A stretch of 64,000 nt of DNA from Escherichia coli (GTDB lineage: Bacteria > Pseudomonadota > Gammaproteobacteria > Enterobacterales > Enterobacteriaceae). The stretch lies in assembly GCF_003991155.1 (NCBI RefSeq), contig NZ_CP031293.1, one strand, 5' to 3'. Below, one piece after another: positions 45,313 through 48,431 of the stretch; positions within the stretch are counted from its first letter, which is position 1, and the number at the start of each line of letters is the position of its first letter. The notes below the pieces were generated by a model. That model was not told the DNA's origin. It saw only the letters and a list, made by a program, of their open reading frames with translations, and ran no database searches. A program made the translations under genes and the position numbers.

Positions 45313-47291
<1,979 letters not shown>

Positions 47292-47293
<2 letters not shown>

Positions 47294-48431
47294 GTCAGAG
47301 CCCCTCGATCTCAATCAGTTAGCGCAAAAAATTAAACAGTGGGGGCTGGAACTGGGCTTTCAGCAGGTAGGTATTACCGATACCGATCTCAGCGCGTCCG
47401 AGCCCAAACTGCAAGCATGGCTGGACAAACAATACCACGGCGAAATGGACTGGATGGCGCGTCACGGTATGCTGCGTGCTCGTCCTCACGAATTATTGCC
47501 CGGTACGCTGCGCGTGATCAGCGTGCGGATGAATTACCTTCCTGCTAACGCCGCATTTGCCAGCACGCTGAAAAATCCCAAACTCGGCTATGTTAGCCGT
47601 TATGCGCTGGGCCGTGACTATCACAAGCTTCTGCGCAACCGACTCAAAAAGCTGGGCGAGATGATTCAGCAACATTGTGTTTCGCTGAATTTTAGACCGT
47701 TTGTCGATTCTGCGCCTATTCTCGAGCGCCCGTTAGCTGAAAAAGCAGGTCTTGGCTGGACAGGTAAGCACTCACTTATCCTCAATCGCGAGGCCGGTTC
47801 GTTCTTTTTTTTAGGCGAATTGCTGGTCGATATTCCGCTGCCCGTGGATCAACCAGTCGAGGAAGGATGCGGTAAATGCGTGGCCTGTATGACGATTTGC
47901 CCGACCGGTGCCATCGTCGAGCCATATACCGTCGATGCTCGCCGCTGTATCTCTTATCTCACCATCGAACTGGAAGGGGCGATCCCGGAAGAGTTGCGAC
48001 CGTTAATGGGAAACCGTATTTACGGTTGCGATGACTGCCAGCTTATCTGCCCGTGGAATCGCTATTCGCAACTCACTACAGAAGACGATTTCAGCCCGCG
48101 TAAGCCGCTACACGCACCGGAACTCATTGAGTTATTCGCCTGGAGTGAAGAGAAGTTTTTAAAAGTCACGGAAGGTTCGGCGATTCGCCGTATAGGTCAC
48201 CTGCGTTGGCTGCGTAATATTGCCGTAGCCTTAGGCAATGCGCCCTGGGATGAAACGATTCTGGCGGCGCTGGAAAGTCGTAAAGGTGAGCACCCACTTC
48301 TTGATGAGCACATAGCGTGGGCGATTGCGCAGCAAATCGAGAGGCGAAATGCGTGCGTGGTCGAAGTGCAATTACCGAAAAAACAGCGTCTGGTTCGGGT
48401 GATTGAAAAAGGGTTACCGCGTGACGCCTGA
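47292..48431 (+). CDS. queG: Epoxyqueuosine reductase QueG (4Fe-4S, cobalamin-dependent)
   Basis: ORF 415 aa; conserved start at [23 protein letters not shown] (379 aa); two CxxCxxCxxxCP ferredoxin motifs. Confidence 0.88.

Follow-up and report, generated by a model that had tools for sequence, protein, structure and literature searches.

The divergently oriented genes nnr (yjeF) and queG (yjeS) of Escherichia coli overlap at their start codons, and this geometry is conserved among related species. Their transcripts overlap at the 5′ ends, and double-stranded RNA (dsRNA) is formed from the overlap in vivo. We consider it likely that the two genes are a genuine head-to-head overlapping pair, in which the annotated starts are the main ones, the promoters are embedded in the partner genes face to face, and mutual dampening is to be expected. 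The overlap of the coding sequences (CDSs), the transcript overlap, the dsRNA, and the status as an excludon are already known, although only from annotation and genome-wide lists. The present analysis adds evidence for the two starts from a comparison of loci, assigns positions to the embedded signals, and corrects the orientation of the promoter pair to convergent. A single stretch of about 50 nt around both starts, nearly invariant across 81 species, appears to serve as two N-terminal coding regions, one Shine-Dalgarno (SD) sequence, one mRNA leader, and one -10 element.

A conserved overlap of two start codons

Within the window (the whole 64,000-nt stretch of E. coli DNA analysed), the ATG of nnr runs from 47293 to 47291 on the minus strand and that of queG from 47292 to 47294 on the plus strand, with bases 47292 and 47293 in common (Table 1). 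The N-terminus of QueG read from this codon is MSEPLDLNQ. A second in-frame ATG of nnr, codon 6 of the gene, lies at 47278-47276 on the minus strand and would give the N-terminus MKKNP. An earlier note on this DNA had described a 2-nt overlap of the start codons and had pointed to a downstream Met of nnr at 47278; both are borne out by the sequence, and the identical overlap is found in the RefSeq annotation of strain 2016C-3878 and of K-12 MG1655, where queG occupies 4392928..4394067 (-) and nnr 4394066..4395613 (+). It is annotated in all RefSeq E. coli records examined. Bases 46800-47800 of the window show 100% identity to strain 2016C-3878 and were found in 5,425 of 5,426 complete E. coli genomes; in every genome with a match (5,425/5,425), the junction is present at 95% identity or more.

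Both proteins are assigned by family models. Nnr, a bifunctional NAD(P)HX epimerase/dehydratase, scored 1028 bits over residues 1-509 against the NCBIfam equivalog NF007856 (cut-off 703), and both of its Pfam domains, YjeF_N and Carb_kinase, were found. QueG, the epoxyqueuosine reductase, scored 510 bits against TIGR00276 (cut-off 200) and contains QueG_DUF1730 (PF08331) and Fer4_16 (PF13484, double 4Fe-4S). Judged by the annotated starts and by the comparative evidence, the 5′ ends of the two CDSs share at least one nucleotide, which is what defines a head-to-head CDS overlap. This geometry is rare, because a survey of E. coli lists just 2 divergent overlapping CDS pairs among 663 overlapping and 4,131 adjacent pairs (PMC4161906).

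Table 1. Features of the nnr/queG junction (window coordinates)
Feature	Position	Strand	Location or note	Support
CATG tetranucleotide with both starts	47291..47294		shared by nnr and queG	sequence, RefSeq annotation, 81-locus conservation
nnr (yjeF) CDS	45746..47293	-	515 aa + stop	NF007856, Pfam, annotation
queG (yjeS) CDS	47292..48431	+	379 aa + stop	TIGR00276, Pfam
Alternative in-frame nnr start, codon 6	47276..47278	-	weak SD	start-capable in 60/81 loci
nnr SD, GAGGGG (plus strand CCCCTC)	47301..47306	-	queG codons 4-5 (Pro-Leu)	7 nt before nnr ATG
Proposed extended -10 of queG promoter, TGgTATACT	47252..47260	+	nnr codons 12-14 (Ser-Ile-Pro)	conservation, mapped 5′ end
queG 5′ leader, ~24 nt	47268..47291	+		Conway 5′ end 4392114 (U00096.2), PMC7373196 supplement
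Candidate -10 of first nnr operon promoter, TAAAAT	47689..47694	-	queG codons 133-135	
nnr 5′ leader, ~388 nt	47294..47681	-	antisense to queG codons 1-130	Conway, Lybecker, and p19 data, PMC7373196 supplement
Region transcribed on both strands, ~413 nt	47268..47681		source of RNase III-cut dsRNA	PMC7373196 Table 2 + supplement

The comparative set comprised 80 Enterobacteriaceae loci (one genome per species, Nnr identity 73-98%) and the E. coli reference (L001), 81 in all. MTDHTMKK was one of several peptide patterns used for retrieval and may have biased the set; many of the loci retrieved do not contain this peptide, and an independent sample of cluster representatives gave the same picture. 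The ATG of queG is invariant in 81/81 loci, a conserved upstream in-frame start was found in none of them, and QueG has 379 aa without indels in all. The first ATG of nnr is present in 80 of the 81 loci, and in 76 it shares the reading frame of the remaining gene; the locus without it, from Salmonella enterica subsp. arizonae, has ATT followed directly by ATG. The overlap geometry is thus kept in 76/81 loci, down to 73% Nnr identity, and in these no starts other than the two annotated ones are conserved. The frame from the first ATG is maintained despite free variation in nnr codons 5-11, and it is intact in two loci (L052 and L060) that carry a 9-nt in-frame insertion.

Codon 6 of nnr is more variable, being ATG in 36 loci, GTG in 16, TTG in 8, and a non-start codon in the remaining 21 (CTG 8, CTA 7, GAG 4, ATA 1, CTT 1). 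In these 21 loci, the first ATG is the sole start upstream of the conserved S-I-P-H-x-V-W segment. In four Kosakonia loci, the sequence between the two ATGs is longer by an inserted nucleotide (+1 nt), which leaves codon 6 as the only usable start. Since these species must use it, codon 6 is able to function as a start of nnr. From these sequence comparisons, we conclude that the annotated starts of nnr and queG are probably the principal ones. The overlap is neither a product of chance nor an annotation artefact. A start at 47278 is unlikely to be the main one, and it may make a minor contribution in E. coli. For E. coli itself, use of the first nnr ATG is inferred from conservation and from the strength of its SD. 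A search of the PDB for a structure of E. coli Nnr, from which its N-terminus could be read, returned none, and neither gene is mentioned in the supplement texts of Nakahigashi 2016 (TetRP) or TRAINSPOTTER 2026. Two further start candidates were discarded. An upstream in-frame ATG of queG at 47262 precedes the mapped 5′ end and is without conservation; a TTG of nnr at 47314 is not preceded by an SD (+1.3 kcal/mol), and the extension that it would create contains the real SD.

The adjacency also reaches beyond the family. In a more distant search, cluster representatives sharing at most 50% identity were taken and their contigs inspected, and the divergent queG / nnr-tsaE-amiB layout was found in 8 of 11 retrievable lineages, most of them with Nnr 44-50% identical to that of E. 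coli. Start-to-start spacing is -2 nt, the same CATG overlap, in L085 and L089 (Nnr identity about 46-49%). Lineages L083 and L084 have +1 and +6 nt, respectively, L086/L087 and L088 share a spacing of +22 nt, and the starts are farther apart in L092 (at least 73 nt) and L094 (+194 nt). This recurrence in distant lineages indicates that the adjacency of queG and nnr is old, with the full overlap being one of several tight variants.

Proposed signals embedded in the partner genes

Scans for consensus sigma-70 promoters and terminators found nothing at 46900-47700 or 47600-49250, and neither of the promoters proposed here, PqueG and Pnnr, has a recognisable -35. The proposals are therefore built on -10 elements, mapped 5′ ends, and conservation, and the exact hexamers of both promoters are to be taken as inferred. 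A sigma-E reading of GGTCTAAAAT was rejected, as no GGAACTT-like -35 stands at the required spacing. The earlier note had placed the promoters and the ribosome-binding region of each gene inside the CDS of its partner. This placement agrees with the present assignments, in which the putative -10 of each gene, the nnr SD, and the queG leader all fall within codons of the other gene.

For queG, the extended -10 TGgTATACT precedes the published 5′ end (about 47268) by 7-8 nt and is invariant in nearly all 81 loci. Transcription from this element would yield a short, U-rich leader that is complementary to nnr codons 1-8. The leader has no SD and is essentially unstructured (minimum free energy of -3.0 kcal/mol for the leader region, over 73 nt), and pairing of the anti-SD with the queG start is correspondingly weak at -2.2 kcal/mol. 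An independent laboratory has deleted PqueG with primers that remove about 47232-47263, i.e., the TATACT segment, and datA phenotypes were the sole assay of the resulting strain (PMC10950094). TG-extended -10-like motifs are also found in the homologous S-[IL]-P-[HY] codons of nnr in distant lineages (TGGTAGACT in L086 and TGGTAAACT in L089).

For nnr, translation would start at the first ATG by means of GAGGGG, which doubles as the Pro4-Leu5 codons of QueG. This SD is conserved in about 76 of the 81 loci, ends 7 nt upstream of the ATG, and pairs with the anti-SD at -7.2 kcal/mol, compared to -3.2 kcal/mol for codon 6, where only GGA is available. The candidate -10 TAAAAT lies 7-8 nt upstream of the Conway promoter call at 4391701 (U00096.2), which corresponds to window position 47681. 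The 13 nt that include it (GGTCTAAAATTCA, 47698-47686) are invariant in 81/81 loci. A proximal nnr promoter within 47294-47400 was considered and set aside, since no -10-like hexamer with A2/T6 occurs there. Neither the junction nor the nnr leader matched a known RNA family in Rfam; the only hits of the search were the three tRNA-Gly genes. Conway et al. call a 14-gene operon with 8 promoters (nnr-tsaE-amiB-mutL-miaA-hfq...) their "most complex" one, and nnr stands at its head (PMC4161252). In our model, nnr and the tsaE-amiB-mutL-miaA-hfq genes would be transcribed from the TAAAAT promoter, which precedes the nnr ATG by about 388 nt, and upstream read-through may add to this transcription.

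Synonymous sites were compared in codon-threaded alignments of the 81 loci, in which mean third-position entropy is 1.34 bits for nnr and 1.15 bits for queG. Values fall to 0-0.5 in nnr codons 1-4, which carry the queG leader beside the shared CATG, and to 0 in nnr codons 12-14, which carry the putative queG -10. In queG, codons 1-12, corresponding to the nnr SD and proximal leader, show 0 to 0.38, with the exception of codon 9 (1.31); at the two SD codons, the entropy is 0.0 (codon 4) and 0.32 bits (codon 5), compared to the mean of 1.15. Codons 131-135, around the candidate nnr -10, have about 0.0 and are among the lowest windows in queG. Sites of conserved residues in multi-codon families are frozen at 5/5 positions in queG codons 2-12 (p=3.5e-6) and at 2/2 in nnr codons 12-14 (hypergeometric p=0.003); these p-values are generous, as the 81 loci come from related species and independence is overstated. 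The frozen sites coincide with the proposed signals, and this sequence pattern supports the assignments.

Two alternative readings bear on this evidence. It might be argued that the overlap was created by annotation of E. coli and that Nnr in fact begins with MKKNP at 47278, leaving 13 nt between the CDSs. Codon 6 is indeed ATG in E. coli and start-capable in 60/81 loci, the Kosakonia loci can use no other start, and Nnr residues 1-5 lie outside the YjeF_N domain. However, such a start is unavailable in the 21 loci where codon 6 is a non-start codon, the frame from the first ATG is held in 76 of the 81 loci despite indels that include the 9-nt insertion, and the conserved, well-spaced GAGGGG fits the first ATG far better than GGA fits codon 6. 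We regard the MKKNP start as improbable on balance. The conservation of the junction might also reflect a general constraint on first codons, such as weak mRNA structure or codon choice, with no signals embedded in them. Synonymous sites near the 5′ end of a coding region do generally vary less. Yet the frozen sites match GAGGGG at SD distance and TGgTATACT at -10 distance, the nnr codons 5-11 between these motifs vary freely, and TAAAAT is frozen 388 nt inside queG, where a 5′-codon effect does not apply. An explanation by general constraint alone thus deserves hardly any credence, and the embedded signals remain the preferred account.

Overlapping transcripts and their expected effect

The transcript data come from Huang et al. 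2020 (PMC7373196), whose supplement brings together three independent data sets in U00096.2 coordinates. One of the small RNAs tabulated there, CAUGACGGACC... at 4392087, was used to verify the coordinate frame; it puts the A of the nnr start codon at 4392089. The Conway RNA-seq data give an nnr-strand operon with its promoter (P) at 4391701 and its terminator (T) at 4408049, and an overlap of 413 nt with the opposite queG transcript at 4391701-4392114 (PMC7373196). We read 4392114, the far end of this overlap, as the queG 5′ end. The two 5′ ends then correspond to about 47268 for queG and 47681 for nnr in the window, or about 4394091 (-) and 4393678 (+) in K-12 NC_000913.3; as RNA-seq coverage calls, they carry an uncertainty of a few nt. 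The published transcript overlap is in keeping with the conserved -10 element found at each of the mapped 5′ ends.

The overlap is also recovered as dsRNA. In the same supplement, the Lybecker dsRNA immunoprecipitation lists a 383-nt region of the "divergent" class (MS-212, 4391717-4392100), and p19 capture gives the cluster S-361 (yjeS/yjeF) at 4391754-4392109 with 5,635 RPM (PMC7373196). Among the RNase III products are paired RNAs of 21-22 nt that map to the nnr SD (window 47315-47295, 1,155 nnr-sense reads) and to both start codons (window 47294-47273) (PMC7373196). ExcludonFinder lists queG-nnr as 1 of 16 divergent excludons present in at least 50% of 58 MG1655 transcriptomes (PMC12288877). 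Conway, Lybecker, Huang, and ExcludonFinder agree in describing opposite-strand neighbours with 5′-overlapping transcripts, i.e., an excludon. The supplement texts of SMRT-Cappable-seq and Cappable-seq, possibly incomplete, contain no entry for nnr/queG or for their coordinates.

The promoters of nnr and queG are convergent, because each lies beyond the start of the other gene. The compact bidirectional arrangement described in the earlier note stands insofar as the start codons adjoin, but the two promoters are not a shared back-to-back unit: the transcription starts at about 47268 (+) and 47681 (-) run towards each other from about 413 nt apart. RNA polymerases would meet head-on over these 413 bp. 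Since the regions in which translation of nnr and queG begins are both part of the overlap, the two RNAs are complementary there; they pair and are cut by RNase III. The net effect is expected to be mutual dampening, as in an excludon, instead of co-activation. Antagonism between queG and nnr, not co-expression, would follow from this arrangement. A literature search found no experiment on mutually exclusive expression of the two genes. The proposal that the layout couples queuosine maturation to NAD(P)HX repair is not supported either, as nothing links the two processes specifically, and dsRNA formation together with excludon class would predict antagonism. Because nnr is the first of 14 genes, a functional link, if there is one, more plausibly connects queG with the whole operon than queuosine with NAD(P)HX repair.

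How the nnr transcripts arise can be viewed in another way. Expression of nnr might come mainly by read-through from the glyVXY tRNA operon or from yjeV, via datA and antisense across all of queG, in which case TAAAAT would not be the main promoter. ExcludonFinder lists yjeV-queG-nnr as a noncontiguous operon (PMC12288877), transcripts from PglyVXY that cross datA have been documented (PMC10950094), and no simple intrinsic terminator was found between the tRNAs and the queG 3′ end. Against a dominant role of read-through stand the Conway promoter call, the dsRNA signals that begin near 4391701 instead of extending across the whole of queG, and the 13 invariant nt directly upstream of the mapped nnr 5′ end. 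We therefore hold it to be rather unlikely as the main source; the TAAAAT promoter and read-through are not mutually exclusive. It is also conceivable that one shared control region turns on queG and nnr together. The adjacent starts and the nearly invariant 50 nt around them would suit such a unit, since the block could be the site of a shared regulator. However, the mapped 5′ ends converge and offer no common divergent region, and polymerases running head-on should hinder each other. The overlap gives rise to dsRNA that RNase III cuts, and the pair is classed as an excludon. The nnr SD and the queG leader, together with the -10 and the coding regions for both N-termini, explain the invariant block. 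Co-regulation of this kind appears highly unlikely, and convergent promoters with mutual dampening remain the reading that we favour.

A more far-reaching proposal is that the shared CATG layout is a selected antisense control point, one that predates the divergence of the Enterobacteriaceae, recurs in distant gammaproteobacteria, and balances queG against nnr-tsaE-...-miaA-hfq. RNase III cutting at the nnr SD would then set the translatable share of the long-leader transcript. Among the small RNAs captured by p19 at this end of the cluster, the most abundant one lies at the nnr SD (PMC7373196). We offer this proposal as a speculative one that is rather unlikely. If true, it would link three tRNA-modification genes (Q34, t6A37, i6A37) and hfq, instead of queuosine and NAD(P)HX repair.

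Relation to known systems and practical consequences

The arrangement can be compared to several characterised types of gene pair. In araC/araBAD and ilvY/ilvC, transcription starts diverge from a shared intergenic region. The pair nnr/queG resembles them in having divergent genes and closely packed control elements, but it has no intergenic region, and its transcription starts converge from within the partner CDSs. Convergent promoter pairs such as pR/pL of coliphage 186 and prgQ/prgX of pCF10 are characterised switches with measured transcriptional interference. Here the likeness is in promoters that face each other over a few hundred bp, so that collisions and complementary RNAs are to be expected, whereas for nnr/queG such an outcome is predicted.

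Divergent excludons (PMC12288877) are closer in design. They also consist of opposite-strand neighbours in which one long 5′ leader is antisense to the other gene. In nnr/queG, the overlap extends to the CDSs, which share bases of their start codons, and the duplex includes both translation-initiation regions; the excludon hallmark of mutually exclusive expression is, for this pair, an expectation only. Other 5′-overlapping pairs processed by RNase III include rhlB/trxA, rsd/nudC, hemC/cyaA, pepA/lptF, and asd/yhgN (PMC7373196 Table 2). The pair yjeS/yjeF appears as S-361 in the same top-20 table, is of the same 5′-overlap type, and is supported there by dsRNA immunoprecipitation and RNA-seq operon maps. 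The table does not say whether an intergenic spacer is present in the other pairs; in the survey noted above, divergent CDS overlap is confined to 2 E. coli pairs (PMC4161906).

These results leave current understanding as it is, unless the cell is shown to make physiological use of the predicted antagonism. In principle, transcription of queG could modulate tsaE, mutL, miaA, and hfq, because nnr heads their operon. For strain construction, knock-outs or tags at the 5′ end of either nnr or queG disturb the other gene, and the delta-PqueG allele necessarily deletes codons of nnr. A start-codon mutation that affects a single gene is possible only at 47291 or 47294.

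Natural variants of the shared start

The junction at which nnr and queG share their start codons varies among the Enterobacteriaceae loci compared. Four Kosakonia loci (L055, L056, L061 and L064) carry a 1-nt insertion at the junction, so that nnr must start there at the codon-6 ATG. At the locus of Salmonella enterica subsp. arizonae (L018), the first codon of nnr is ATT, followed by ATG, and the two start codons therefore lie 1 nt apart with no overlap. The same 1-nt start-to-start gap in the distant lineage L083 is an annotation effect only, as this locus keeps the first nnr ATG (CATGATGG) and the gene caller chose the second as the nnr start. 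Residue 11 of Nnr (47261-47263) is Ile (ATA) in this strain versus Val (GTA) in K-12, and because of this single difference identity over the 86-nt junction is 98.8%, not 100%, in most E. coli genomes.

In the short-leader queG mRNA, the first AUG is out of frame. It lies at 47282 on the plus strand, is complementary to the codon for His4 in nnr, and opens a 17-codon putative ORF that spans the queG start. Buttiauxella is without this AUG, and His4 is replaced by Leu (CTG) there. In L088, a GC-rich distant lineage, TATACT is found on the queG strand (~375-410 of that locus), where it precedes the queG ATG by only 6 nt. From this position, the queG mRNA of that lineage would be predicted to be leaderless or nearly so.

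Low synonymous variation within nnr and queG

Several stretches of low synonymous variation were found within the two genes. Two of these lie in nnr, distant from the junction (codons 356-370 and 390-405). The nnr-tsaE-amiB... operon has been described to have eight promoters (Conway, PMC4161252), and these stretches could be candidate internal promoters of this multi-promoter operon. Variation is also very low in nnr codons 496-515, consistent with the embedded ribosome-binding site and start of tsaE, which overlaps the 3' end of nnr by 29 nt (tsaE ATG, at 45774; nnr stop, 45746-45748).

A second strong dip is located in queG codons 155-160, where the block AGtGAGTGCTTaCC (minus strand) is invariant. 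Relative to the nnr 5' end, this block lies ~75-95 nt upstream, and neither a promoter-like nor a palindromic motif was recognised in it. At queG codons 331-336, third-position entropy is ~0.4 bits, versus a queG mean of 1.15.

Coordinates of features in and around nnr and queG
Feature	Position
nnr/tsaE overlap	45746-45774
nnr codons 390-405	~46080-46125
nnr codons 356-370	~46184-46228
Putative 17-codon ORF (plus strand)	47282-47335
queG codons 155-160	47754-47776
queG codons 331-336	48282-48299
tRNA-Gly, first of three tandem	48704-48776
tRNA-Gly, second of three tandem	48815-48887
tRNA-Gly, third of three tandem	48927-48999

Region between queG and the tRNA-Gly genes

A search for a simple intrinsic terminator between the queG 3' end and the tRNA-Gly genes (48431-49000) found none, which fits the published finding that transcription reads through toward both queG and nnr (PMC10950094). 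The same region (minus strand) contains DnaA-box-like motifs (TTATCCACA/TGTGGAT) and corresponds to the datA locus together with the small yjeV ORF.
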